Positions 10,818-62,256 of a stretch of 64,000 nucleotides of DNA are shown piece after piece. Within the stretch, counting starts at the first letter, position 1; each line of letters starts with the position of its first letter. Made by a program: the position numbers and the translations under genes. Source of the stretch: Escherichia coli (GTDB lineage Bacteria; Pseudomonadota; Gammaproteobacteria; Enterobacterales; Enterobacteriaceae). The notes below the pieces were generated by a model that was not told the origin of the DNA, did no database searches, and saw only the letters and a program-made list of their open reading frames with translations. The DNA is taken from NCBI RefSeq assembly GCF_024502345.1, contig NZ_JALDNN010000001.1; one strand, written 5' to 3'.

Positions 10818-11000
10818 TCACAACCCGAAGATGTTTCTTGCGATCCATCATCGTGTTGCGAAAATTTGAGAGACTCACGAACAACTTTCGTTGTTCAGTG
10901 TTTCAATTTTCAGCTTGATCCAGATTTTTAAAGAGCAAAACTTCGCAGTGAACCTTTTCAGGTACACTCTGAAGTATTTTTTATTTAATCACTACAGAGA

Positions 11001-11076
11001 TGGTGGAGCTATGCGGGATCGAACCGCAGACCTCCTGCGTGCAAAGCAGGCGCTCTCCCAGCTGAGCTATAGCCCC
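11001..11076 (-). tRNA. alaT: tRNA-Ala (UGC), spacer tRNA
   Basis: Reverse complement GGGGCTATAGCTCAGCTGGGAGAGCGCCTGCTTTGCACGCAGGAGGTCTGCGGTTCGATCCCGCATAGCTCCACCA. Confidence 0.95.
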
Positions 11077-11118
11077 ATAACATGTAGTTAAAACCTCTTC
11101 AAATTTGCCGTGCAAATT

Positions 11119-11195
<77 letters not shown>

Positions 11196-11263
11196 GTAGA
11201 GGTTTTACTGCTCATTTTCATCAGACAATCTGTGTGAGCACTGCAAAGAACGCTTCTTTAAGG

Positions 11264-31975: not shown

Positions 31976-32788
31976 ATGGCAACAACACAACAATCTGGAT
32001 TTGCACCTGCTGCATCGCCTCTCGCTTCGACCATCGTTCAGACCCCGGACGACGCGATTGTGGCGGGCTTCACCTCTATCCCTTCACAAGGGGATAACAT
32101 GCCTGCTTACCATGCCAGACCAAAGCAAAGCGATGGCCCACTGCCAGTGGTCATTGTAGTGCAGGAAATTTTTGGCGTGCATGAACATATCCGCGACATT
32201 TGTCGCCGTCTGGCGCTGGAGGGGTATCTGGCTATCGCACCTGAACTTTACTTCCGCGAAGGCGATCCGAATGATTTTGCCGATATCCCCACGTTGCTTA
32301 GCGGTCTGGTAGCAAAAGTGCCTGACTCGCAGGTGCTGGCCGATCTCGATCATGTCGCCAGTTGGGCTTCCCGCAACGGCGGCGATGTTCATCGTTTAAT
32401 GATCACCGGATTCTGCTGGGGTGGACGTATCACCTGGCTGTATGCCGCGCATAATCCACAGCTAAAAGCCGCAGTGGCGTGGTACGGCAAACTGACGGGC
32501 GACAAGTCGTTGAATTCACCGAAACAACCTGTTGATATCGCAACCGATCTTAACGCGCCGGTTCTCGGCTTATATGGCGGTCTGGATAACAGTATTCCGC
32601 AGGAGAGCGTTGAAACCATGCGCCAGGCGCTGCGGGCTGCTAATGCGAAAGCAGAGATTATCGTGTACCCGGATGCCGGGCATGCATTCAACGCTGATTA
32701 TCGCCCGAGCTATCATGCCGAATCTGCGAAAGATGGCTGGCAGCGTATGCTGGAATGGTTTAAGCAGTATGGTGGGAAGCGGAGTTAG
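31976..32788 (+). CDS. ysgA: dienelactone hydrolase-family protein YsgA
   Basis: ORF 31910..32788; the start is MATTQQSGF at 31976; alpha/beta hydrolase motif GFCWGG. Confidence 0.85.
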   Translation: MATTQQSGFAPAASPLASTIVQTPDDAIVAGFTSIPSQGDNMPAYHARPKQSDGPLPVVIVVQEIFGVHEHIRDICRRLALEGYLAIAPELYFREGDPNDFADIPTLLSGLVAKVPDSQVLADLDHVASWASRNGGDVHRLMITGFCWGGRITWLYAAHNPQLKAAVAWYGKLTGDKSLNSPKQPVDIATDLNAPVLGLYGGLDNSIPQESVETMRQALRAANAKAEIIVYPDAGHAFNADYRPSYHAESAKDGWQRMLEWFKQYGGKRS

Positions 32789-33181
32789 TTTCCTCTTAGT
32801 CTATATTTGAGATGGTGAGTGAACGAGTGCGTTTTGCTGCCATCTCTGTCCCCCAAAAAATAATCAGTATGAATTGATTGGAGATTACGACTCCGCTATT
32901 TGACCTTAAAAAAGTCGGCAAGTCATAGTCATAAATGAGTCTCTTCAATGGAAGACACCTTAGAGATTTACCATCAACTCCCATTCACAAACAAACATTA
33001 ATTATTATCAACACATTCACATTAATTATAAATCATCTCAGACCTTCCTGATAAAAAGATATTAAAGTGAAACATTTTGTTTTTCACATTTTAGTTCATC
33101 ACTTTTAGGCGTAAATAAAGGTAAAAAAAACAACAATACTATTTCTCTTTCACAAAAGAATTAACAAAAGGTTTTTCAAGG

Positions 33182-33657
33182 ATGAGTGATATTATTTACC
33201 TGACCATAACCGGAGAACAACAAGGATGTATTTCCTCTCGTTGTGGAACGAGCGCATCAATAGGTAATCGCTGGCAGATTGGCCATGATGATGAAATCTT
33301 CGCGTTCTCGCTCTCTAATAGTATTACGAATACAGGCAAAGGGTCATAATTGCATGGCCTTAGTTTCTGTAAATTGATTGACAAAAGCTCCCCGTTACTT
33401 ATTAACGCTATTAACAATAACGAGCAGTTGTTCATGGAGTTTGACTTCTATCGGATCAATAGGTTTGGTCGATGGGAGAAATATTACAACATTCAACTCC
33501 GCGGCGCGCTCTTATCAGCAATCAATCACCTGTTTACTGAGAACAATCTGGATACAGAAGCCATCACTGTCAGTTATGAATATATACTCTCCAGGCATCT
33601 GATTGCTAATACTGAATTTAGTTATTTGGCATTTCCCGATAACTACAACCGTCTGTT
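33182..33657 (+). pseudogene. Hcp-family (T6SS tube protein) domain, N-terminal part of a disrupted Hcp-fused toxin gene
   Basis: ATG at 33182 gives MSDIIYLTITGEQQG...; the frame hits TAA at 33347-33349 and resumes in the same frame with the Hcp-like stretch FCKLIDKSSPLL. The reading frame then runs into the IS903 end at 33658. Confidence 0.7.
33649..33657. repeat. IS903 target-site duplication, left copy (CCGTCTGTT)
   Basis: The identical 9-mer recurs at 34715-34723, immediately outside the two inverted repeats. Confidence 0.9.
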
Positions 33658-34714
33658 GGCTTTGTTGAATAAATCGAACTTTTGCTGAGTTGAAGGATCA
33701 GATCACGTATCTTCCCGACAACGCAGACCGTTCCGTGGCAAAGCAAAAGTTCAAAATCACCAACTGGCCCACCTACAATAAAGCCCTCATCAACCGTGGC
33801 TCCATAACTTTCTGGCTGGATGATGAAGCTATTCAGGCCTGGTATGAGTCAGCAACACCTTCTTCACGAGGCAGACCTCAGCGCTATTCTGACCTTGCCA
33901 TCACGACTGTGCTGGTCATTAAACGCGTATTCAGGCTGACCCTGCGCGCTGCGCAGGGCTTTATTGATTCCATTTTTTCTCTGATGAACGTTCCGCTACG
34001 CTGCCCGGATTACAGCTGTGTCAGCAGGCGGGCAAAGTCGGTTAATGTCAGTTTCAAAACGCCCACCCGGGGTGAAATCGCACACCTGGTAATTGATTCC
34101 ACCGGGCTGAAGGTCTTCGGTGAAGGCGAGTGGAAAGTCAAAAAGCATGGCCAGGAACGCCGCCGTATCTGGCGTAAGCTGCATCTCGCCGTTGACAGTA
34201 AAACACATGAAATCATCTGCGCTGACCTGTCGCTGAACAACGTTACGGACTCAGAGGCCTTCCCCGGGTTAATCCGGCAAACCCACCGGAAAATCAGGTC
34301 AGCCGCCGCCGATGGCGCTTACGATACCCGGCTATGTCACGATGAACTGCGGCGTAAGAAAATCAGCGCGCTTATCCCTCCCCGAAAAGGTGCGGGTTAC
34401 TGGCCCGGTGAATATGCAGACCGTAACCGTGCAGTGGCTAATCAGCGAATGACCGGGAGTAATGCGCGGTGGAAATGGACAACAGATTACAACCGTCGCT
34501 CGATAGCGGAAACGGCGATGTACCGGGTAAAACAGCTGTTCGGGGGTTCACTGACACTGCGTGACTACGATGGTCAGGTTGCAGAGGCTATGGCCCTGGT
34601 ACGAGCGCTGAACAAAATGACGAAAGCAGGTATGCCTGAAAGCGTGCGTATTGCCTGAAAACACAACCCGCTACGGGGGAGACTTACCCGAAATCTGATT
34701 TATTCAACAAAGCC
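33658..34714 (+). mobile_element. IS903-type insertion sequence (IS5 family), 1057 bp
   Basis: Terminal 18-bp inverted repeats GGCTTTGTTGAATAAATC (33658-33675, and reverse complement at 34697-34714); internal 322-aa ORF; flanked by a 9-bp direct repeat. Confidence 0.9.
33690..34658 (+). CDS. IS903-type DDE transposase
   Basis: 322-aa ORF matching my recollection of the IS903/IS102 transposase. Confidence 0.85.
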   Translation: MKDQITYLPDNADRSVAKQKFKITNWPTYNKALINRGSITFWLDDEAIQAWYESATPSSRGRPQRYSDLAITTVLVIKRVFRLTLRAAQGFIDSIFSLMNVPLRCPDYSCVSRRAKSVNVSFKTPTRGEIAHLVIDSTGLKVFGEGEWKVKKHGQERRRIWRKLHLAVDSKTHEIICADLSLNNVTDSEAFPGLIRQTHRKIRSAAADGAYDTRLCHDELRRKKISALIPPRKGAGYWPGEYADRNRAVANQRMTGSNARWKWTTDYNRRSIAETAMYRVKQLFGGSLTLRDYDGQVAEAMALVRALNKMTKAGMPESVRIA

Positions 34715-34723
34715 CCGTCTGTT
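34715..34723. repeat. IS903 target-site duplication, right copy (CCGTCTGTT)
   Basis: Exact 9-bp match to 33649-33657. Confidence 0.9.
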
Positions 34724-34753
34724 TATACCACGGCCAAAAACTAAAGCTGGTAA

Positions 34754-35395
34754 TGGTTCAAAACACTTAATAGTAAAGCGGTTGGCAGACTGCTTGCTGC
34801 TGGCGGCATATACAATGGGAATATCGAAGGATTCAGGGAAACAGCAGACAAGTTGGGGGGAGATGCACCTGCTGGTTACGATCAATTTATGGATAACAAA
34901 GGGTTACTCATCGCTGGTGCTTCAATAGTTGCTGGAGCAGTTCTGGGGAGAATGAGACTCCCTGATTTGGAATCACTTGAGCATTTCGGAGCCAGAGGAG
35001 CAGTATCAGGAAGACCATTTAATCCCGACCTTGCCGGTGGTCCAATAGAAAATCTGACGACAGATGGCGTAACAATCAACAGGGAAGGTATCGCTATTGT
35101 TGAAAAACACATAGCCAGATTTGGTCATGACCCTGTAAATGAAGTGATGATCAATAGACTGAAAGACATTGAGAAAGGAAAAATCCCCCCAGAACAAGTA
35201 GATCTTAACTTCTATACTCATGAGTGTCGGGAATATCAGCGTTACTGTAATCTTGGTTGGGAAACAGGACAACCTGATGGTGACGCAGGCTATGCACTCT
35301 GGAATCATACGCATACTGCTACTCTAGAAGATTATAAACTTAAGGGAGAACTTAATGACTTATACCACCAGGATGCACTTGACTATGATAACTGA
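34754..35395 (+). pseudogene. toxin-like C-terminal domain of the disrupted Hcp-fused gene (family not identified)
   Basis: Open frame of 213 codons after a stop at 34751; no ATG near its 5' end (the ORF track uses TTG at 34853). It begins with a Gly/Ala-rich linker (GRLLAAGGIYNGNIEGF...DKLGGDAPAGYDQF). It is in a different frame from the pre-insertion Hcp frame. Confidence 0.5.
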
Positions 35396-35630
35396 AACTG
35401 AAATTAACGTACTGAAAGTTATGGCTGAGAAAGATATAAACTGGAACTGGATGAATCTCGATCGCACACTATCCATAAGGCAAATTCCAGGATTCGGTAA
35501 TGTTGTTAACATTGTTAACAAATTAGCTAACGAGGGTTTGGTTATTATTGAGGATAGCGGACATAAGTCTATGCCTCACTACCACGTTACTGAAAAGGGA
35601 TACAATTTCGTGAAAAGTGAGAATAAATAA
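35355..35630 (+). CDS. putative cognate immunity protein (small cytoplasmic protein)
   Basis: 91-aa ORF with AAGGGAGAA Shine-Dalgarno 6 bp upstream of the ATG at 35355; overlaps the 3' end of the toxin-like ORF (alternative ATG at 35385 overlaps its TGA). Confidence 0.5.
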   Translation: MTYTTRMHLTMITETEINVLKVMAEKDINWNWMNLDRTLSIRQIPGFGNVVNIVNKLANEGLVIIEDSGHKSMPHYHVTEKGYNFVKSENK

Positions 35631-35777
35631 CGTAGCGTTGATTACTGAACAAATCGCTCAGGATTATATTTTGCGTAAAAATGATTCGGTTATTTCTGTA
35701 TCTGAACGGGCGCAGATAGCAAAATGGCTTCCGGTGATGGAAGCCATCAGATTATTGGCAAAGTGCGCGTTGTTCAT

Positions 35778-35818
35778 GCCGGATGCGGCGTGAACGCCTT
35801 GTCCGGCCAACAAAACTC
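35778..35818. repeat. REP element
   Basis: gccggatgcggcgtgaacgccttgtccggcc. Confidence 0.7.
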
Positions 35819-35914
35819 AAAAATTCAATAAATTGCATAAATTATGTAGGCCTGGTATCAGGCAGTTTTGCCTCTTTCATCGTACTGCAATTTACAGTGA
35901 CTCGTTAATATTCA

Positions 35915-38176
35915 TCATCCCCGACGCAAATTCTGCGCCGCCTGCACCATGTTCGCCAGTGCCGCGCGGGTTTCTGGCCAGCCGCGCGTTTTCAGGCCAC
36001 AGTCCGGGTTGACCCACAGGCGCTCTGCCGGAATGCGTTTTGCCGCTTTCTTCAGCAAGGCTTCAATCCATTCCACGCTCGGTACGTTTGGCGAGTGAAT
36101 GTCATAGACGCCTGGACCGATTTCATTCGGATAATCAAACTCTTCAAACGACTCCAGCAACTCCATGTCGGAACGCGAGGTTTCGATGGTGATGACGTCT
36201 GCATCCAGTGCCGCAATCGAATCCATGATGTCGTTGAACTCGCAATAACACATGTGAGTGTGGATTTGTGTGTCATCTTTCGCCACGGCGGCGTTGATAC
36301 GGAAGGCCTCCACGCCCCACTGGAGATATGCATCCCAGTCGCTACGACGCAGCGGTAAACCTTCGCGCAGCGCCGGTTCATCAATCTGGATGATGCCAAT
36401 TCCTGCGGCTTCCAGGTCCGCCACTTCATCACGCAGCGCCAGCGCAATTTGTTTGGCGATGGTTTCACGGCTGACATCTTCACGCGGGAACGACCAGCAG
36501 AGAATGGTCACCGGGCCAGTCAGCATCCCTTTCACCGGTTTATCAGTCAGAGATTGCGCATACTTCGCCCACTCCACGGTAATCGGTGCCGGGCGGCTAA
36601 TGTCACCAATGACAATCGGTGGCTTCACGCAGCGGGAACCGTAGCTCTGTACCCAACCGTTTTGCGTAAAGACAAATCCGTCGAGGTGCTCGCCAAAGTA
36701 TTCCACCATGTCATTACGCTCGGCCTCGCCATGTACCAGCACATCCAGTCCCAAACGTTCCTGTTCAACAATGGCCTGCTTGATATGTTCCGCAATGCCC
36801 GTGCGGTAGTTGTTGGCGTCGAGATTACCCTTTTTGAAATCCAGACGCAGGGTACGAATTTCCGTGGTTTGCGGGAAGGAACCAATCGTGGTGGTCGGCC
36901 ACGCTGGCAGTTTAAAACGCGCACGCTGGGCTTCGGCACGCACTTCATAGACATTCGCACGCTGGCTGTCCTGGGCGGTGATCGCCGCCAGACGCTTTTC
37001 TACTGCCGGGTTATGTACACGAGTAGAGTGACGACGCGCCTGAATTGGAGCGCTCCACTCTGCCAGAGCTGCCGTATCACCACTGTTCAGCGCATCTCGC
37101 AGCAGTGCCAGTTCATGACATTTTTGCAGGGCGAAGGCAAACCAGCTTTTCACTTCTGCATCAAGACGCGTTTCCACGCTCAGGTCGATGGGGCTGTGCA
37201 GCAACGAGCAGGAAGATGCCACCCACAAATCACGTTTGCCGACAATGTCCTTAATTTGCGCATATTTCTCAGTAAGATCGGCGCGCCAGACGTTACGACC
37301 ATTGATCAGACCCGCAGACAGCAGCCAGTCAGAAGGCAGGCGCTTGTGCAGTTCAACAACGTCATCTTTACCATGTACAAGGTCCACATGCAGCCCCTGA
37401 ACAGGCAGCGCAGTAATCGTGTCGAGATTTGGCGTTACGCCTTCAAAATAGGTGGTCAGCAGCAGTTTCACCTGTCCCTGGAGCGCGTCGTAAGCGGGTT
37501 TGTATGCGTCCAGCCACGCCTGTGGTAGTTCCAGTACCAGCGCGGGTTCATCAATCTGTACCCACTCGATGCCGCGTTTCGCCAGTTCTGCCAGCACTTG
37601 CTGATAAACCGGCAGAATGTCGTTCAGCAGGCTAAGGCGGTCAAACTGTTCACCTTTCACTTTCCCCAGCCACAGGTAAGTAACCGGCCCCAGCAGCACA
37701 GGCTTAACGTTGTGGCCCAGCGCCAGCGCCTCGTCCACTTCCTCCAGCAGCTGCGTCCAGGTCAGTTTGAACTGTTGGCCTTTAACGAACTCCGGCACCA
37801 TGTAGTGATAGTTGGTGTTAAACCATTTGGTCATTTCCGCTGCCGCCGCAGGTTCGCCAGTCGGCGCACGTCCACGACCAATACGGAACAGGGTGTCGAT
37901 ATCTACCGAACCGTCTTTGTTCTGATGACGTGGCGGAACATTACCCAGCAGCAAACTGGTGGTCAGTACATGATCGTACCAGGCAAAATCGCCCACCGGC
38001 AGCAGGTCGATACCCGCTTGCTTTTGTTGATCCCAGTGACGAGCACGCAGTTCACGCCCTACTGTCAGCAGTTCTTCACGCGTGGAGTTCCCCGCCCAAT
38101 AACTTTCTTGCGCTTTTTTCAGCTCGCGACGCAGGCCAACGCGAGGGAAACCGAGGGTGTGATTCAATATTGTCAT
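35915..38176 (-). CDS. metE: cobalamin-independent methionine synthase
   Basis: 753 aa, begins [30 protein letters not shown]. Confidence 0.95.
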
Positions 38177-42168: not shown

Positions 42169-42798
42169 ATGACCTTAGAATGGTGGTTTGCCTACCTGCT
42201 GACATCGATCATTTTAAGCCTGTCGCCAGGCTCTGGTGCAATCAACACTATGACCACCTCGCTCAACCACGGTTATCGCGGCGCGGTGGCGTCTATTGCT
42301 GGGCTTCAGACCGGACTGGCGATTCATATTGTGCTGGTTGGCGTGGGGTTGGGGACGCTATTTTCCCGCTCAGTGATTGCGTTTGAAGTGTTGAAGTGGG
42401 CAGGCGCGGCTTACTTGATTTGGCTTGGGATCCAGCAATGGCGCGCCGCTGGCGCAATTGATCTTAAATCGCTGGCCTCTACTCAATCGCGTCGACATTT
42501 GTTCCAGCGCGCAGTTTTTGTGAATCTCACCAATCCCAAAAGTATTGTGTTTCTGGCGGCGCTATTTCCGCAATTCATCATGCCGCAACAGCCGCAACAG
42601 CCGCAACTGATGCAGTATATCGTGCTCGGCGTCACCACTATTGTGGTCGATATTATTGTGATGATCGGTTACGCCACCCTTGCTCAACGGATTGCTCTAT
42701 GGATTAAAGGACCAAAGCAGATGAAGGCGCTGAATAAGATTTTCGGCTCGTTGTTTATGCTGGTGGGAGCGCTGTTAGCATCGGCGAGGCATGCGTGA
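42169..42798 (+). CDS. rhtB: homoserine/homoserine-lactone efflux protein RhtB (LysE family)
   Basis: 209 aa, begins [27 protein letters not shown]; contains an in-frame CCGCAACAG-type repeat (QQPQQPQ). Confidence 0.9.
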
Positions 42799-42807
42799 AA
42801 AATAATG

Positions 42808-42837
42808 TCGGATGCGGCGTAAACGCCTTATCCGACT
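42808..42837. repeat. REP element
   Basis: gtcggatgcggcgtaaacgccttatccgac. Confidence 0.7.
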
Positions 42838-42859
42838 TACTCTGAAGACGCGTCTGGCA

Positions 42860-43480
42860 TCACCGCGAAATAATCAAATGAATGCCAAATCCGGCAAATA
42901 ACGCCCCGGCAAAACCATCAATCCACTTCGCCAGACGTTGATAACCACGGCGCATTTGCGGCAGGGCAAACAGGCTGGCAACGACGGTAAACCACGCCAG
43001 TGTTTCGATAATAATCAACGCGAAAATGCCCCAGCGCTCAGTGGTGCCGACGTTATCGCCGACAAACAGCGAGAATACCGAACCAAAGTAGATAATCGCT
43101 TTCGGATTAGCGAGATTGGTCAGTAAACCTTTCAGGAAACTGCGCCCGCTTTTCGCCAGCTCAATCTGTGGTGCAGGCGCAGATACAGCCTCTTTTTTCA
43201 GTGCACCGCGTAGCATCTGGTAACCCATCCAGCAGAGATACAGGCCACCGCCAACCATAATCAGCGTATGCAGCCAGGCCATTTTTTCGATAATCAAATG
43301 CAGGCCAAGCAACGCAATCCCAGCCCAAACCATTACACCGCAGGTAATGCCCAGCACGCCCATCATCGCTTCTTTACGGGAACGACTGACAGCGGTCTGA
43401 GAGACAAAAAAGAAATCGGGACCGGGGCTCATAAGCGCCACAATATGCACCATGGCGACGGTGAGAAATAACATCAACAT
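42860..43480 (-). CDS. rhtC: threonine efflux protein RhtC (LysE family)
   Basis: 206 aa, begins MLMLFLTVAMVHIVALMSPGPDFFFV. Confidence 0.9.
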   Translation of the reverse strand: MLMLFLTVAMVHIVALMSPGPDFFFVSQTAVSRSRKEAMMGVLGITCGVMVWAGIALLGLHLIIEKMAWLHTLIMVGGGLYLCWMGYQMLRGALKKEAVSAPAPQIELAKSGRSFLKGLLTNLANPKAIIYFGSVFSLFVGDNVGTTERWGIFALIIIETLAWFTVVASLFALPQMRRGYQRLAKWIDGFAGALFAGFGIHLIISR

Positions 43481-47058: not shown

Positions 47059-47946
47059 ATGGATGCAAAACAAACGCGGCAGGGCGTATTACTCGCTCTT
47101 GCCGCTTATTTTATTTGGGGTATTGCGCCAGCATACTTCAAGCTGATTTACTACGTGCCCGCCGATGAAATCCTGACGCATCGCGTGATCTGGTCGTTTT
47201 TCTTTATGGTGGTGCTGATGAGCATTTGCCGCCAGTGGTCCTATTTAAAAACGCTGATTCAGACGCCACAGAAAATTTTTATGCTGGCAGTCTCTGCCGT
47301 GCTGATTGGTGGCAACTGGCTACTGTTTATCTGGGCGGTGAACAATCACCATATGCTGGAAGCGAGCCTTGGTTACTTTATTAACCCGCTGGTGAACATT
47401 GTGCTGGGGATGATTTTCCTCGGCGAGCGATTCCGCCGGATGCAATGGCTGGCGGTGATTCTGGCGATATGTGGCGTGTTAGTCCAGCTGTGGACTTTTG
47501 GTTCGCTACCTATTATCGCGCTGGGACTGGCATTTAGTTTTGCCTTCTACGGTCTGGTACGCAAGAAGATTGCCGTTGAAGCGCAAACCGGCATGTTAAT
47601 TGAAACCATGTGGCTGCTGCCCGTGGCGGCAATTTACCTGTTTGCTATTGCCGACAGCTCAACCAGCCATATGGGGCAAAACCCGATGTCGCTGAATTTA
47701 CTGCTGATCGCCGCCGGTATTGTCACTACCGTACCGCTGTTGTGTTTTACCGCCGCTGCCACGCGCTTGCGTCTCTCAACGTTAGGCTTTTTCCAGTACA
47801 TTGGCCCGACGCTGATGTTCCTGCTGGCTGTGACGTTTTATGGTGAAAAACCGGGTGCCGATAAGATGGTGACTTTCGCCTTTATTTGGGTGGCGCTGGC
47901 AATTTTTGTGATGGATGCGATTTATACGCAGCGTAGAAAAAGTTAA
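47059..47946 (+). CDS. rarD: EamA-family transporter RarD
   Basis: 295-aa membrane protein. Confidence 0.9.
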   Translation: MDAKQTRQGVLLALAAYFIWGIAPAYFKLIYYVPADEILTHRVIWSFFFMVVLMSICRQWSYLKTLIQTPQKIFMLAVSAVLIGGNWLLFIWAVNNHHMLEASLGYFINPLVNIVLGMIFLGERFRRMQWLAVILAICGVLVQLWTFGSLPIIALGLAFSFAFYGLVRKKIAVEAQTGMLIETMWLLPVAAIYLFAIADSSTSHMGQNPMSLNLLLIAAGIVTTVPLLCFTAAATRLRLSTLGFFQYIGPTLMFLLAVTFYGEKPGADKMVTFAFIWVALAIFVMDAIYTQRRKS

Positions 47947-47992
47947 GAATTAACATGGGTAGGCCGTTTAATGAGCCTACCCACTGACTTAT

Positions 47993-48337
47993 TTATCTTT
48001 TTTTGAAAAAAATTAAGATAAGAAAAAGAACAATATTTGTTACAGGAAGTACCCCCAAAACTCCCCAGTACTTACTCCATCCTAGAGACATCGTATATCT
48101 ACCAAGGATTTGACAAAACCCAAAACTTAACCCTATACCTATACTTCTTAAATTTAATGTCGTAGTCAGGCTTAAAATAAATAGAACAAGGATGGTAATA
48201 GCCCACCACAATAACCATGCCTTAACAAAATCAGATTTTTTGCTGTAAGGTTCTTTACCCAAGAACAACTGCCAAAAGTTACCATTCCCCATATAGAATC
48301 CATTCCCCAAGATATTGTTTATAGAATAAAAATACAT
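47993..48337 (-). CDS. hypothetical small inner-membrane protein (possibly the yigG equivalent)
   Basis: 114-aa ORF with two or three hydrophobic segments in an AT-rich stretch; strand and identity not verified. Confidence 0.35.
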   Translation of the reverse strand: MYFYSINNILGNGFYMGNGNFWQLFLGKEPYSKKSDFVKAWLLWWAITILVLFILSLTTTLNLRSIGIGLSFGFCQILGRYTMSLGWSKYWGVLGVLPVTNIVLFLILIFFKKR

Positions 48338-48616
48338 TCCAATTATATTTAATTAAAATATACCCCATCAATAAAAACTTACACACTCTAAATTACTACT
48401 GTATAGTTATCAATGCAAAGACTGCTATATTGCATATATATATGCAAACCTCATAATTCAGGTAATATATATATTCAAAACAATTATATATAAAAAACAA
48501 TGTAAAAAATATTCAAATCATCCATCAGAAATATATTCTACCCATCCAGGCTTGAGCATTTATCACGCTTTCAGTTCATAATCTATACATTAACATCATG
48601 GTCAATATTAATAACT

Positions 48617-48895
48617 TTGAATGATATCAACCTGGCTTTGAGTTTTATTCTGGTTATTAATAATACCTATGTAAATATCAATATTGGAGCAAAAAGAATA
48701 AGAGATACTGGATGTAAGGCAATCTACTTTGTATTGATTTCATTGGGTTTGACACTTTTTTCTATTATCTCTGCAGCAATTGAAGGGGTGAGATGTGAGT
48801 CATTAAGCGTCCAACTCAACGTGGCATGGATATTATTCACAACAATTATGTTATCTGCGATTCCCTCGGCTAAAATGTCGCTGTCAGCACACTAA
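48617..48895 (+). CDS. hypothetical small membrane protein (possibly the yigF equivalent)
   Basis: 92-aa ORF, hydrophobic, AT-rich context. Confidence 0.3.
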   Translation: MNDINLALSFILVINNTYVNINIGAKRIRDTGCKAIYFVLISLGLTLFSIISAAIEGVRCESLSVQLNVAWILFTTIMLSAIPSAKMSLSAH

Positions 48896-48920
48896 CTTAC
48901 TCACAGCGACATCGTATAGT

Positions 48921-49047
48921 TACAGCCAGTTCTTGCGCTTAAAGTACAGATACGGTGCCAGGCCCGCGAGGATCATAAAGATAATCGCGCCTGGGTAGCC
49001 GAAACTCCACTTCAGTTCTGGCATAAACTCAAAGTTCATGCCATAGC
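48921..49047 (-). pseudogene. displaced duplicate of the corA 3' end (last ~40 codons)
   Basis: ~127 bp, ~94% identical to the corA 3' end at 51419-51545; encodes ...[43 protein letters not shown] with no upstream corA body. Confidence 0.8.
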
Positions 49048-49209
49048 TGGAGGCAATCGGCGTAGGAAAAAGTTTCCTAATCGGTAAATTCAATATTTTG
49101 TTATTAACAATGAGCAAGACCAATCATTAACGACGTTCTCTTCAGAGATGTAATGAAAAAATGTGAAGTGTACTTCTTTTTTAAATATTTTTTTACCCTA
49201 GCATTTGTT

Positions 49210-49218
49210 CTCAAATTG
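49210..49218. repeat. IS1 target-site duplication, left copy (CTCAAATTG)
   Basis: Identical 9-mer at 49987-49995. Confidence 0.9.
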
Positions 49219-49233
49219 GGTAATGACTCCAAC

Positions 49234-49737
49234 TTATTGATAGTGTTTTATGTTCAGATAATGCCCGATGACTTTGTCATGCAGCTCCACCGATTTTGAG
49301 AACGACAGCGACTTCCGTCCCAGCCGTGCCAGGTGCTGCCTCAGATTCAGGTTATGCCGCTCAATTCGCTGCGTATATCGCTTGCTGATTACGTGCAGCT
49401 TTCCCTTCAGGCGGGATTCATACAGCGGCCAGCCATCCGTCATCCATATCACCACGTCAAAGGGTGACAGCAGGCTCATAAGACGCCCCAGCGTCGCCAT
49501 AGTGCGTTCACCGAATACGTGCGCAACAACCGTCTTCCGGAGCCTGTCATACGCGTAAAACAGCCAGCGCTGGCGCGATTTAGCCCCGACGTATCCCCAC
49601 TGTTCGTCCATTTCCGCGCAGACGATGACGTCACTGCCCGGCTGTATGCGCGAGGTTACCGACTGCGGCCTGAGTTTTTTAAATGGCGGAAAATCGTGTT
49701 GAGGCCAACGCCCATAATGCGGGCGGTTGCCCGGCAT
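49234..49737 (-). CDS. insB: IS1 transposase InsB reading frame
   Basis: 167 aa, begins [16 protein letters not shown]. Confidence 0.9.
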
Positions 49738-49931
49738 CCAACGCCATTCATGGCCATATCAATGATTTTCTGGTGCGTACCGGGTTGAGAAGCGGTGTAA
49801 GTGAACTGCAGTTGCCATGTTTTACGGCAGTGAGAGCAGAGATAGCGCTGATGTCCGGCGGTGCTTTTGCCGTTACGCACCACCCCGTCAGTAGCTGAAC
49901 AGGAGGGACAGCTGATAGAAACAGAAGCCAC
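49656..49931 (-). CDS. insA: IS1 InsA
   Basis: 91 aa, begins [42 protein letters not shown]. Confidence 0.9.
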
Positions 49932-49986
49932 TGGAGCACCTCAAAAACACCATCATACACTAAATCAGTAAGTTGGCAGCATCACC

Positions 49987-49995
49987 CTCAAATTG
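49987..49995. repeat. IS1 target-site duplication, right copy (CTCAAATTG)
   Basis: Exact match to 49210-49218. Confidence 0.9.
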
Positions 49996-50121
49996 ATATT
50001 GAGCTTAAATATAACCAAGGAAAATGTAAATGAATAACACATTACTTCCATCAATTAATATTCCCTGTACACTTTTCGAAACTATTAGTTTATTTGATGA
50101 TTATTCTGCTGATGATATGCA

Positions 50122-50145
50122 ATATGGTGATATGGTGATATGGTA
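50122..50145. repeat. 8-bp tandem repeat (ATATGGTG x3, last copy imperfect) spanning the start codon of ORF 50140
   Basis: atatggtg atatggtg atatggta; each unit contains an ATG, and only the third is in frame with the long ORF. Confidence 0.8.
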
Positions 50146-50886
50146 GAACAAGATTTTCTCTCACTCGGCCTAAGCGATATCTCAGCAAAAGTTGATCCTT
50201 ACAGACTTATTAAATACCATTTCCCTAGCCCAGGTTCTATTAATGTTGCTTTTAGTGCCTCAAGTTCCGGAACAAAAATATCACAACGTGAATGCACTGA
50301 TATTTTATTTGCAGAAATGAAAGAACTAGCAAAAATGTTTTCCTTTTTTGGACAATATAAAACACTTATCGAAGATCTGATTGAACATTTTAGATATGGA
50401 AATGGCAGCAATTTTCATAGCCAACAATTAAATTTATCTTTTCATGAAAAAATAAATAAATATGGTTATAATAGTCCAATACGAATAATCAAAGAATGTA
50501 TCGAAAATGGCATTAATTCAACTCCCTCGACAGGATACCAACCTCTTATCCTGCAAAGCATTAAAACCAAATTACTTTCATCAAGACTAAATAAATTTAA
50601 TGACTTCGAGGACAGTTTTAATGGCTTAGGAATCAGTGTTCATGATATTTCAGCTCAAAAAATATCTCTTTTAAGTTTTCAAAAATACGCTATAGGATGG
50701 AGTGCAACAATTCATTTTGTAGCACAGGACCACTTCGGTCTTGATGTAACTGATATCAAAAACAAGACTTACAGCAAATATAGATTTTTTCGCATATGGT
50801 TCTTTTTACAACGGCATAAAGACTTTGCTTTCAAACCTTTTTTCACCAATTTTAACACTATCGAAAGAATCGAAAATTATCTATGA
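50140..50886 (+). CDS. hypothetical protein, 248 aa, no signal peptide (candidate effector/toxin of a two-gene module)
   Basis: Long ORF in AT-rich DNA; its stop overlaps the next ORF's start (ATGA at 50883-50886). Confidence 0.5.
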   Translation: MVEQDFLSLGLSDISAKVDPYRLIKYHFPSPGSINVAFSASSSGTKISQRECTDILFAEMKELAKMFSFFGQYKTLIEDLIEHFRYGNGSNFHSQQLNLSFHEKINKYGYNSPIRIIKECIENGINSTPSTGYQPLILQSIKTKLLSSRLNKFNDFEDSFNGLGISVHDISAQKISLLSFQKYAIGWSATIHFVAQDHFGLDVTDIKNKTYSKYRFFRIWFFLQRHKDFAFKPFFTNFNTIERIENYL

Positions 50887-51374
50887 AAAGCAAACTCCAG
50901 AAAATTATATTATGTTTATTTCTTCTATGCTGCATCTATAATTTATGGACATTGCGTCCTGTACAGATTTTGTATACATACTCTGATGCTGGCAATTCAG
51001 TCTTTCTGGTCGTTGATCATCTGCCATGGACTGACAGCGATAAAATAAATTGGTATCTGAAGCATCAGAATGAAATTAAAAATCAACATCCCCTACCAGA
51101 AGGTAGTTGGCATACCTGGTATGTCATTGATATCGGTAATGGCTTCACTGACTATAAAAAATATATCGAAGGGCCGTATGAAGATCTCTACTGTTTCCCG
51201 ACAATTAAGAGCAATGATAATTGCATCGTGAAAAATTACTTAATGGTTATTAATGAATACCCTTATCGTAACACTCATATTGTTATTAACGATTTTACTG
51301 AGTATCAATTAACACAAGAAAATAAAATAGAGCGAGTTTTCAATCCGCATGACTTTAAAAAAGACAATTTTTAG
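50883..51374 (+). CDS. hypothetical exported/membrane-anchored protein, 163 aa (candidate immunity partner)
   Basis: N-terminal MKSKLQKIILCLFLLCCIYNLWTL is a signal or anchor sequence; translationally coupled to the upstream ORF. Confidence 0.5.
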   Translation: MKSKLQKIILCLFLLCCIYNLWTLRPVQILYTYSDAGNSVFLVVDHLPWTDSDKINWYLKHQNEIKNQHPLPEGSWHTWYVIDIGNGFTDYKKYIEGPYEDLYCFPTIKSNDNCIVKNYLMVINEYPYRNTHIVINDFTEYQLTQENKIERVFNPHDFKKDNF

Positions 51375-51415
51375 AAATAAGCCGGATAAAAAAATAGCTT
51401 TATCCGGCACTCATA

Positions 51416-59428: not shown

Positions 59429-60937
59429 GTGATCAACACCTCGCGCCAGGATGGCTTTATGCACTATCGCAATGTGGTTTGTTTGTTGGCTTGTTCATTG
59501 TTCTTATCGTCGGCATGGGGATGTCGGCTTGATGCACCTGAACATAATATTTACCAGAAACAGGGAAAAGGCGTGGTGTACCTGCGCCCTTATAAAGAAA
59601 CAAATCTTTCTCTACCTGACGTGAATTACAAGAGTTTGCGCCGTTTACCCAATTTATTAATAGACCCAACAACACAAGATGAATGGACTAAAGAACCACC
59701 TCTGACTGATCTAACAACCGACTACCTCTATGAAGGCGCACAAGCCTGGTATCCTCATTACTCCTGGCATAGCGATGGCCGCAATATCCTCTACGCGGGT
59801 GAAGTTGTGCAAAACCCGCCAGACAAACCTCCCGTCGATGTCGCCTCGTTCAAGGCATGAGGTGATTTTGCCGCAGATAAACACAGTCTCTATTTCGAAG
59901 GCAAGCGCACTGATGACAATGGTGGGGGAAATAGCGTAGATATCAAAACACTGCATCAGGTGGAATTCCGGCCTCCCTGGGATCCTGACTTACTGGGGCT
60001 GATATTACGTGACGCTAATTTCTTATATGTCGATGGGCATCGCCTCGCTGACCCCGAGAGTTTCCGTGTGCTGGCACAAAAGTCATGGGATCAAAGAGGA
60101 AAGTTTTCTACCGCGTTTAATCCCTGTGTGGCTATGCCATTTGGCCCCTGGGATACCCTGGCTCGTACAAGAACCAAAATCCTGATCAACGGCGAACAGC
60201 TTGATGCCGACCCGGACACTTTTTCCGTCGTGCGCTGGATGCCCGGCTCACTCTTGACCTGGCGTGATAAAAACGGGCTGCAGCGTAAAGTCCTCGACAA
60301 GGAAAATCTGGCGTGGGATGAAGATTTAACAAAGCACTGTCTGGATTTTTCTCTGCTGGAAAAGAAAGTGTTCTGGCGTCAGGGGCCTGACTGTAAACAG
60401 GAAGAATTACCGGGACTCGATCCGGAACAGTTTCACCCCATCAGTGATGCTGTCGCACAGTATCAGGACTCGCTTTATACCATCATCGAAACAGAGTCTG
60501 GTGACCGCAAGCTGGAGATCGTGAAACTTGATGATCCCAATCTTATTATCAACAAACGTTTCAACGCCGGGAAACGCCACGGCTATTTACTTACGCGTGC
60601 CGAAGGGTGGCCATACCATTCCGGTTTACACGTGTTTGAATCTGACGGACCGCTGATCTTACTGGATAACCGCTCTCCGGATGAACGCGAAGCCCATCTT
60701 AATGACCATCCCTTTTTGCGCAGATGGTATGCCCGCGATAACCGCTACGTTTACAGCTTTGATGGCGCGCAGCTCTGGCGATACCGCACCGCTGATCCGA
60801 AACAAGTTCGCTTAATCTGGAAGGAACAACATTCGGGATATGGCTACGGGGTAAATTACAAAACGGGATATCTGGACGGAAAAATTACCGATGACGGCGA
60901 ATTTATTCCTGCCCCGCGCAATGAGGCGACAAAATGA
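59429..60937 (+). pseudogene. secreted repeat protein (DKNYY-like repeats by eye), split by an in-frame TGA at 59858-59860
   Basis: ORFs 59429..59860 and 59960..60937 are in the same frame with only the one TGA between them; the joined product is paralogous to the downstream 440-aa ORF. Confidence 0.6.
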
Positions 60938-62256
60938 AGGGTCAAATAATCACAGTTGCACTCATCCTGTTGGGGCACACATGTCTGACACCTGCTGTAC
61001 AGGCCATAGGGTTCGACTATTACAATGATCACGGTGTTATGTCTTACGGTAAAGGTTATGGGGAGGATGAGAAAATCATTGCCCAATTTCCGAAGATGAA
61101 CAGAGCCGATTTGCGCCTTGTGACAAATATATCCGGGGAGCGGGAGTTAGTGGAAGGCTATATACCCACTGATGAAATAAGCATAAAAAATGAGGAATAC
61201 TACTGGGTGACAGACGGCCGCGTTATTCTCTGGCGTGGCAAAATCGTTAGCAATCCACCGGGAATACCCACTGTCGATATTGCCAGCTTTCAGGCTATGG
61301 GCCGCTTCGCGGTCGATAAATATAGCCTCTATTTTGATGGACAGCGCACCGAAAGTAATAGCGGCGCGTCACGTGTTGATCTGGCGACACTAAAAGCTAT
61401 CGAAGGTAACTCTACCACGCTGGTGGATAGTAAAAATCTCTATTTGTCCGGTCGACGTCAGGGGAGCAGCAGTAATGTTACTGTATTAGAAAAAAGATGG
61501 TGGGGTATTAATCCACGTCTTATGAGTGTAAACAGAAATTTGTATTCCAATGATCTGCTTATCCGCAGTGGGCAGAATATTTATTTAAATGGCGTTCACC
61601 TTACGGCGAATGCAGACTCATTTGAGATAATTCGCTGGATACCTCATTCACTGCTGGTTTTTCGCGACAACAATGGTCTGCATCGTTATCCCTTTGGGCA
61701 ATTATCTGGCAAAGCGATACCCGTAGATGATGACGTCTCTTTTGAAGTGGGGGAAAGTCGCGTTCGCTGGCGTAAACAGCTCTCGCCCGACCGTCAGTGG
61801 AGCAAGTGGATAGACCTACCGGATATTGAACCTGAACAATTTCATCTGATTACTGGCAATATTGCGCAGTATAAAGATCGTCTGTATGTAACAAAATTAT
61901 CGACTTTTGGTGAAGACCAGCTTGAAATAATTCCGCTGGATTCGCCAGACCTGGTCATTGATAACTCATTTAATGGCGGCAAACAACATGTTTACTTTAT
62001 CCGCCAATTACGGTCAAAGAGCGTGCAAATTATTCCAGTTAACGGCCCGCTAATTAAAAACGATCGCTTCGCTTATGACGATCGCAATGTTTATACCTGG
62101 ACCGATACAGAGGTCAGGATTACGCCATCCCCCTGTCCGGCGAAAACACGCGTCAGAGAAGAGAATGTGCGTGAACTTCACAACAGAGACATTATTATTC
62201 CGTTGACGGATGAATCATGCCAGAACGCAGCAGACGAGCAAACTTTGAAGCCCTGA
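60934..62256 (+). CDS. secreted repeat protein, paralogue of the upstream gene (DKNYY-like repeats by eye)
   Basis: 440 aa; Sec-type signal peptide MKGQIITVALILLGHTCLTPAVQA; start overlaps the upstream stop (ATGA). Confidence 0.6.
   Translation: MKGQIITVALILLGHTCLTPAVQAIGFDYYNDHGVMSYGKGYGEDEKIIAQFPKMNRADLRLVTNISGERELVEGYIPTDEISIKNEEYYWVTDGRVILWRGKIVSNPPGIPTVDIASFQAMGRFAVDKYSLYFDGQRTESNSGASRVDLATLKAIEGNSTTLVDSKNLYLSGRRQGSSSNVTVLEKRWWGINPRLMSVNRNLYSNDLLIRSGQNIYLNGVHLTANADSFEIIRWIPHSLLVFRDNNGLHRYPFGQLSGKAIPVDDDVSFEVGESRVRWRKQLSPDRQWSKWIDLPDIEPEQFHLITGNIAQYKDRLYVTKLSTFGEDQLEIIPLDSPDLVIDNSFNGGKQHVYFIRQLRSKSVQIIPVNGPLIKNDRFAYDDRNVYTWTDTEVRITPSPCPAKTRVREENVRELHNRDIIIPLTDESCQNAADEQTLKP

Follow-up and report, generated by a model that had tools for sequence, protein, structure and literature searches.

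A 9-bp in-frame tandem-repeat length polymorphism in the Escherichia coli exporter gene rhtB, most likely produced by slipped-strand mispairing

Introduction

Slipped-strand mispairing generates in-frame polymorphisms of the variable-number tandem repeat (VNTR) type in bacterial coding genes. The repeat array in rhtB has several features in common with these short tandem repeats, namely perfect units, a length divisible by three, alleles that differ in a stepwise manner (1-4 units) and recurrence on different genetic backgrounds. It differs from them in its very low copy number and variability; the rhtB array is not hypermutable and has no use as a typing locus. Phase-variable contingency loci share with rhtB the dependence on repeat slippage, but rhtB has only 1-4 copies and its array does not lie in a promoter. 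We considered and rejected the idea that rhtB is itself a phase-variable contingency locus, since a 9-bp unit never shifts the reading frame and allows no on/off switching.

In E. coli K-12, RhtB functions in the export of homoserine, homoserine lactone or threonine. The K-12 protein (WP_000171710.1, 206 aa) is encoded at the same locus as the protein described here, belongs to the same PF01810 family and has the same residues outside the repeat; our protein carries one additional Pro-Gln-Gln and its gene has five synonymous substitutions. A second close relative is WP_000171713.1, a 209-aa RhtB found for example in E. coli EA7, which is identical in protein sequence and has the same three-unit repeat. 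At the nucleotide level EA7 rhtB equals the K-12 gene apart from the repeat, whereas the gene studied here shows the five synonymous differences. A literature search for an rhtB tandem repeat and for the topology or a periplasmic loop of RhtB returned nothing on either subject.

Genomic context of rhtB

The 64-kb stretch of E. coli DNA analysed here, referred to as the window, is collinear over its whole length with the polA-to-hemC region of K-12, with 98.4-99.5% identity over the syntenic blocks. Among complete E. coli genomes the best match to a 25-kb query reaches 99.2% identity over 93% of its length. The rhtB gene, encoding the homoserine/homoserine lactone efflux protein of the LysE/RhtB family, occupies positions 42169..42798 on the plus strand and specifies 209 amino acids plus a stop codon. 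Of 5,426 complete E. coli genomes, 5,425 contain a match to this open reading frame (ORF) under the annotation 'rhtB: homoserine/homoserine lactone efflux protein', with a nucleotide identity of 96-99%. The records of the identical 209-aa product and of all 120 listed homologues give the LysE domain (PF01810). Upstream lies the divergent pldB gene (lysophospholipase L2; 41036..42058, minus strand), which fixes the synteny, and downstream the convergent rhtC gene (42860..43480, minus strand), whose product, the threonine exporter, is related to RhtB as a paralogue within the LysE family. The order pldB-rhtB-rhtC-recQ is common to the window, EA7, K-12, LR-03, A30 and others. Judged by synteny and annotation the ORF is the rhtB orthologue, in agreement with the name given to it in the first-pass annotation of this DNA, and export of homoserine and homoserine lactone is predicted for the 209-aa allele from its RefSeq product name. 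The intergenic region between rhtB and rhtC contains an imperfect palindrome at 42807-42836, GTCGGATGCGGCGTAAACGCCTTATCCGAC, read by eye, as is usual for REP-type elements located between genes that converge.

Away from rhtB, the window shows further differences from K-12. A 3.1-kb insertion relative to K-12 is located between ysgA and metE (32780-35918). It opens with an ORF that matches only the C-terminal part of the Hcp profile of the type VI secretion system (T6SS; 33350-33688), directly followed by an IS5-family DDE transposase (33690-34658), and further contains ORFs of 180 aa (34853-35395) and 91 aa (35355-35630) that overlap and have no Pfam match. In other E. coli genomes tssD is annotated in the region matched by the 25-kb query, and the insertion has the appearance of an orphan toxin/immunity islet, linked to Hcp, that an insertion sequence has disrupted. 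At 47939-51415 the K-12 genes yigF/yigG are replaced by a segment that includes a pair of small hydrophobic ORFs, a second copy, 147 bp long, of the 3' end of corA (48920-49066), an IS1 element (insB 49234-49737 and insA 49656-49931, both on the minus strand) and a gene pair encoding DUF3289 (50140-50886) and DUF943 (50883-51374) proteins. Beside cyaY, the region 59616-62182 holds two genes that appear intact (59960-60937 and 60934-62256), the Pfam DKNYY match being to the second and not to the first; K-12 has no more here than the frameshifted remnant of a 'DKNYY family' pseudogene. Finally, about 280 bp of the 16S-23S spacer of the rRNA operon (10939-11220) cannot be aligned to K-12, which has tRNA-Glu at this place, and this suggests that the window carries a spacer of a different type.

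The repeat array and its comparison with K-12

An exact search of the window finds the array CCGCAACAGCCGCAACAGCCGCAACTG once, at 42583-42609 on the plus strand. It consists of three 9-bp units in tandem, CCGCAACAG at 42583-42591, CCGCAACAG again at 42592-42600 and CCGCAACTG at 42601-42609. Inspection of 42300-42900 gives the reading frame as an ATG codon, the triplets CCG CAA CAG twice in succession, then CCG CAA CTG and a further ATG; read in frame with the 209-aa ORF, the array encodes PQQ-PQQ-PQL, residues P139 to L147. Tandem Repeats Finder reports the same element at 42582-42607 with a period of 9, 2.9 copies, 100% matches and a score of 52, the copies being perfect and arranged head-to-tail; it is among the six tandem arrays in the window that score at least 40. 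None of 100 dinucleotide-preserving shuffles contained the array string, even with up to two mismatches permitted. The sequence and its translation are exactly those reported in the first-pass annotation, but the coordinates given there, 42561-42596, begin 22 bp upstream of the array and end 13 bp short of its last base, and cover only its first 14 bases.

The K-12 gene is 621 bp long and encodes 206 aa with the sequence PQQPQL, i.e. two units, while the window gene measures 630 bp and encodes 209 aa with PQQPQQPQL. The two proteins are 100% identical over the 206 aligned residues, and the three-residue insertion is the sole difference between them. The first-pass annotation gave the K-12 protein one unit fewer, and the alignment bears this out. 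In an alignment with K-12, EA7 and LR-03 the additional 9 bp appear as a single gap in K-12, placed at 42583..42591 (plus strand), and LR-03 has one more unit; the placement is arbitrary, as any 9-bp register within 42582-42599 yields the same alignment.

On the DNA level the window and K-12 genes are further distinguished by five synonymous substitutions, all of which fall at gene positions 258-294 (42426-42462 of the window), a stretch of 37 bp, the rest of the gene being identical bar the repeat. Of the 5,425 complete E. coli genomes only two have this 258-294 haplotype, namely A30, which comes from a baboon, and GPT24-02. The cluster of substitutions may be a small recombination patch.

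Repeat alleles in the E. coli population

Alleles with one, two, three and four units occur in E. coli. We counted them in the 5,425 complete genomes and, as exact-sequence look-ups of the corresponding proteins, on the contigs of a collection of 15 billion proteins. The one-unit allele (203 aa, WP_042630975.1) is present in 11 genomes and on 870 contigs. The two-unit allele, which is that of K-12 (206 aa), accounts for about 5,412 genomes, a figure obtained as the remainder after subtraction of the other alleles, and the K-12 protein is found on at least 1000 contigs. Three units, as in the window, are present in one genome, that of strain EA7 (pig, China), and on 353 contigs (209 aa, WP_000171713.1), and four units likewise in one genome, that of strain LR-03 with a 639-bp rhtB (212 aa), and on 31 contigs. 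A query of 131 bp with the repeat at its centre told the three- and four-unit alleles apart by length: EA7 gives a 100% match over 131 bp, and the match in LR-03 spans 140 bp. A synthetic one-unit query returned 12 records at 99% identity or above; LR-03 was one of them, matched in two pieces, which leaves 11 true one-unit genomes. Look-ups of hypothetical proteins with five and six units found no contig in the same collection, and neither form was seen in the 5,425 genomes.

Non-standard unit counts therefore characterize 13 of the 5,425 genomes (0.24%), and 99.76% have two units. The frequency of the alleles drops with distance from two units, which fits the prediction of stepwise slippage. 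The four alleles (612, 621, 630 and 639 bp) are all annotated as intact, in-frame rhtB coding sequences, and the earlier description of a small in-frame repeat polymorphism is supported. The three-unit allele is rare and already catalogued in public databases as WP_000171713.1, where RefSeq names it 'MULTISPECIES ... [Enterobacteriaceae]'.

Other rare in-frame variants affect the same loop. In other E. coli strains a 202-aa form is without the four residues PQQP, and in a 217-aa form the residues FPQFIMPQQ are duplicated. Apart from changes in the 9-bp unit, then, this part of rhtB is a minor hotspot for indels.

Conservation and predicted location of the loop

Among the best 120 homologues, whose named sources include Citrobacter, Salmonella, Enterobacter, Kluyvera, Leclercia and Scandinavium, nearly all full-length orthologues are 206 aa long. 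With three exceptions, the loop of the full-length 206-aa orthologues from other genera is five residues long, and it nearly always conforms to P-x-[Q/E]-P-Q; the versions seen among these best 120 homologues are PQEPQ (54), PQQPQ (32), PHQPQ (17) and PDQPQ (7). In a 31-sequence alignment P142, P145 and Q146 (window numbering) are nearly invariant. It is the symmetric PQQPQ that gives rise to a repeat on the DNA level, and PQQPQ with the flanks M...LMQY is restricted to two species representatives, both of them Escherichia. A degenerate coding-sequence scan of 100,044 species-representative genomes found no hit for the three-unit form, while the two-unit control pattern gave two hits, both Escherichia. 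With a five-residue loop in the other genera and no three-unit form among the representatives, two units is on this comparison the ancestral and strongly predominant state.

The Kyte-Doolittle profile of RhtB resolves six hydrophobic segments. Directly upstream of the repeat is segment 4 (residues 115-138; 42511..42582, plus strand), which contains an N-P-K motif (N122, P123, K124) that does not vary across the 31-sequence alignment; directly downstream is segment 5 (residues 148-173; 42610..42687, plus strand), the boundaries of both having been inferred from hydropathy, for segment 4 together with a manual segment model. The repeat (residues 139-147) fills a hydrophilic, charge-free dip at residues 138-147 between the two. 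Loops 1, 3 and 5 together carry 11 lysine and arginine residues, as opposed to a single one on loops 2 and 4 and both termini. By the positive-inside rule and hydropathy, the repeat is most likely located in the loop between transmembrane helices 4 and 5 on the periplasmic side, with the C-terminus outside, and the periplasmic loop proposed in the first-pass annotation is thus supported as a prediction.

Comparison with the paralogue ArgO points in the same direction. ArgO is reported to have five spanning helices, with its first hydrophobic region lying in the cytoplasm, an arrangement that would put the repeat loop on the same side. Structural information on RhtB itself is sparse: a phmmer search against the PDB sequences found no solved relatives, and an AF2 model built from the 31-sequence alignment (coil at 137-146, helix at 147-178) had a mean pLDDT of 59 and a pTM of 0.50 and was dropped as structural evidence for its too low confidence. 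The title of an experimental study of ArgO gives its configuration as Nin-Cout, which is compatible with the orientation predicted here for RhtB.

Origin of the additional unit

We consider it most likely, with a probability of roughly 0.9, that the array is an in-frame tandem-repeat length polymorphism generated by slipped-strand mispairing during replication; we infer this mechanism from the pattern of alleles. The starting point would be the common two-unit allele, which holds the nearly identical units CCGCAACAG and CCGCAACTG and with them two direct copies of the 8-bp sequence GCCGCAAC, spaced 9 apart. A misalignment by one unit at the GCCGCAAC repeat would add or delete 9 bp. The window allele with its three units would represent the +1 product, in which the short uncharged loop joining hydrophobic segments 4 and 5 is lengthened by Pro-Gln-Gln.

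The distribution of the alleles over nucleotide haplotypes is informative in this respect. Copy number varies among strains (1-4 units) on identical flanks. The eight retrieved loci that encode the identical 209-aa protein represent four rhtB nucleotide haplotypes, none of which is that of the window, and the three-unit allele is thus found on at least five distinct haplotypes with the window included. The one-unit allele occurs on at least two, or on three if a flanking difference is counted. The 141-bp haplotype of the window occurs in only two complete genomes, again A30 and GPT24-02, and their rhtB genes are nucleotide-identical to that of the window across the entire gene save for having two units. 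The recurrence on several backgrounds, together with these two-unit twins, makes recent and recurrent slippage the simplest reading.

The same observations bear on the possibility that the three-unit allele was imported by homologous recombination from another three-unit lineage. E. coli recombines often and the 37-bp cluster of five synonymous differences does resemble a patch; yet none of the eight retrieved three-unit loci has the haplotype of the window, and as both complete genomes with that exact haplotype carry two units, the import would need a patch comprising the repeat only. We regard such an origin as highly unlikely, and short-patch recombination could contribute in part to the haplotype diversity, with nothing specific in its favour.

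Less probable still is that the copy number is functionally meaningful, tuning the export or specificity of RhtB or its recognition from outside, and that the three-unit allele is kept by selection. The conservation of the P-x-[Q/E]-P-Q motif and of loop length across genera means that the loop is not a free spacer, and length variants recur on several backgrounds. Against this, all variants are rare, amounting to the 13 of 5,425 complete genomes mentioned above, and their frequency declines symmetrically from two units; no species representative or lineage is fixed for three units, although the positive control was found, and our search found no literature linking the loop to function. A related scenario, in which loop length is under diversifying or balancing pressure and the one-, three- and four-unit alleles are escape or tuning variants, has a very slim chance of being correct; here the loop might be contacted by an agent that makes use of inner-membrane proteins from their periplasmic face, for example a contact-dependent inhibition or colicin-type toxin, or might gate export.

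A sequencing or assembly artefact in one genome, suggested by a short indel in a repeat and by three units in only 1 of 5,425 complete E. coli genomes, is practically negligible in view of the identical 209-aa protein on 353 independent contigs including complete chromosomes (RefSeq WP_000171713.1) and of a clean, in-register 9-bp insertion in a non-homopolymer tract that keeps the frame intact, an atypical error on any platform.

Consequences for RhtB and significance

Relative to K-12, the window protein gains three uncharged residues in a charge-free loop, with the frame and all other residues kept, and the allele recurs in hundreds of isolates. We accordingly expect the 209-aa exporter to be produced and functional, and regard the three-unit variant as most likely neutral or close to neutral. 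Given the constant length of the loop in other genera and the prevalence of two units, there may be weak purifying selection against changes in length, and departures from the standard copy number could be mildly deleterious.

There is nothing mechanistically new in the rhtB repeat, which is an ordinary polymorphism and, as a minor strain marker, of very little importance. If it were true that loop length alters the export of homoserine, homoserine lactone or threonine, the variants might be relevant to strains used in threonine production, although none of the present results points that way. For annotators it is useful to recognize that a 209-aa RhtB is neither an error nor a pseudogene.
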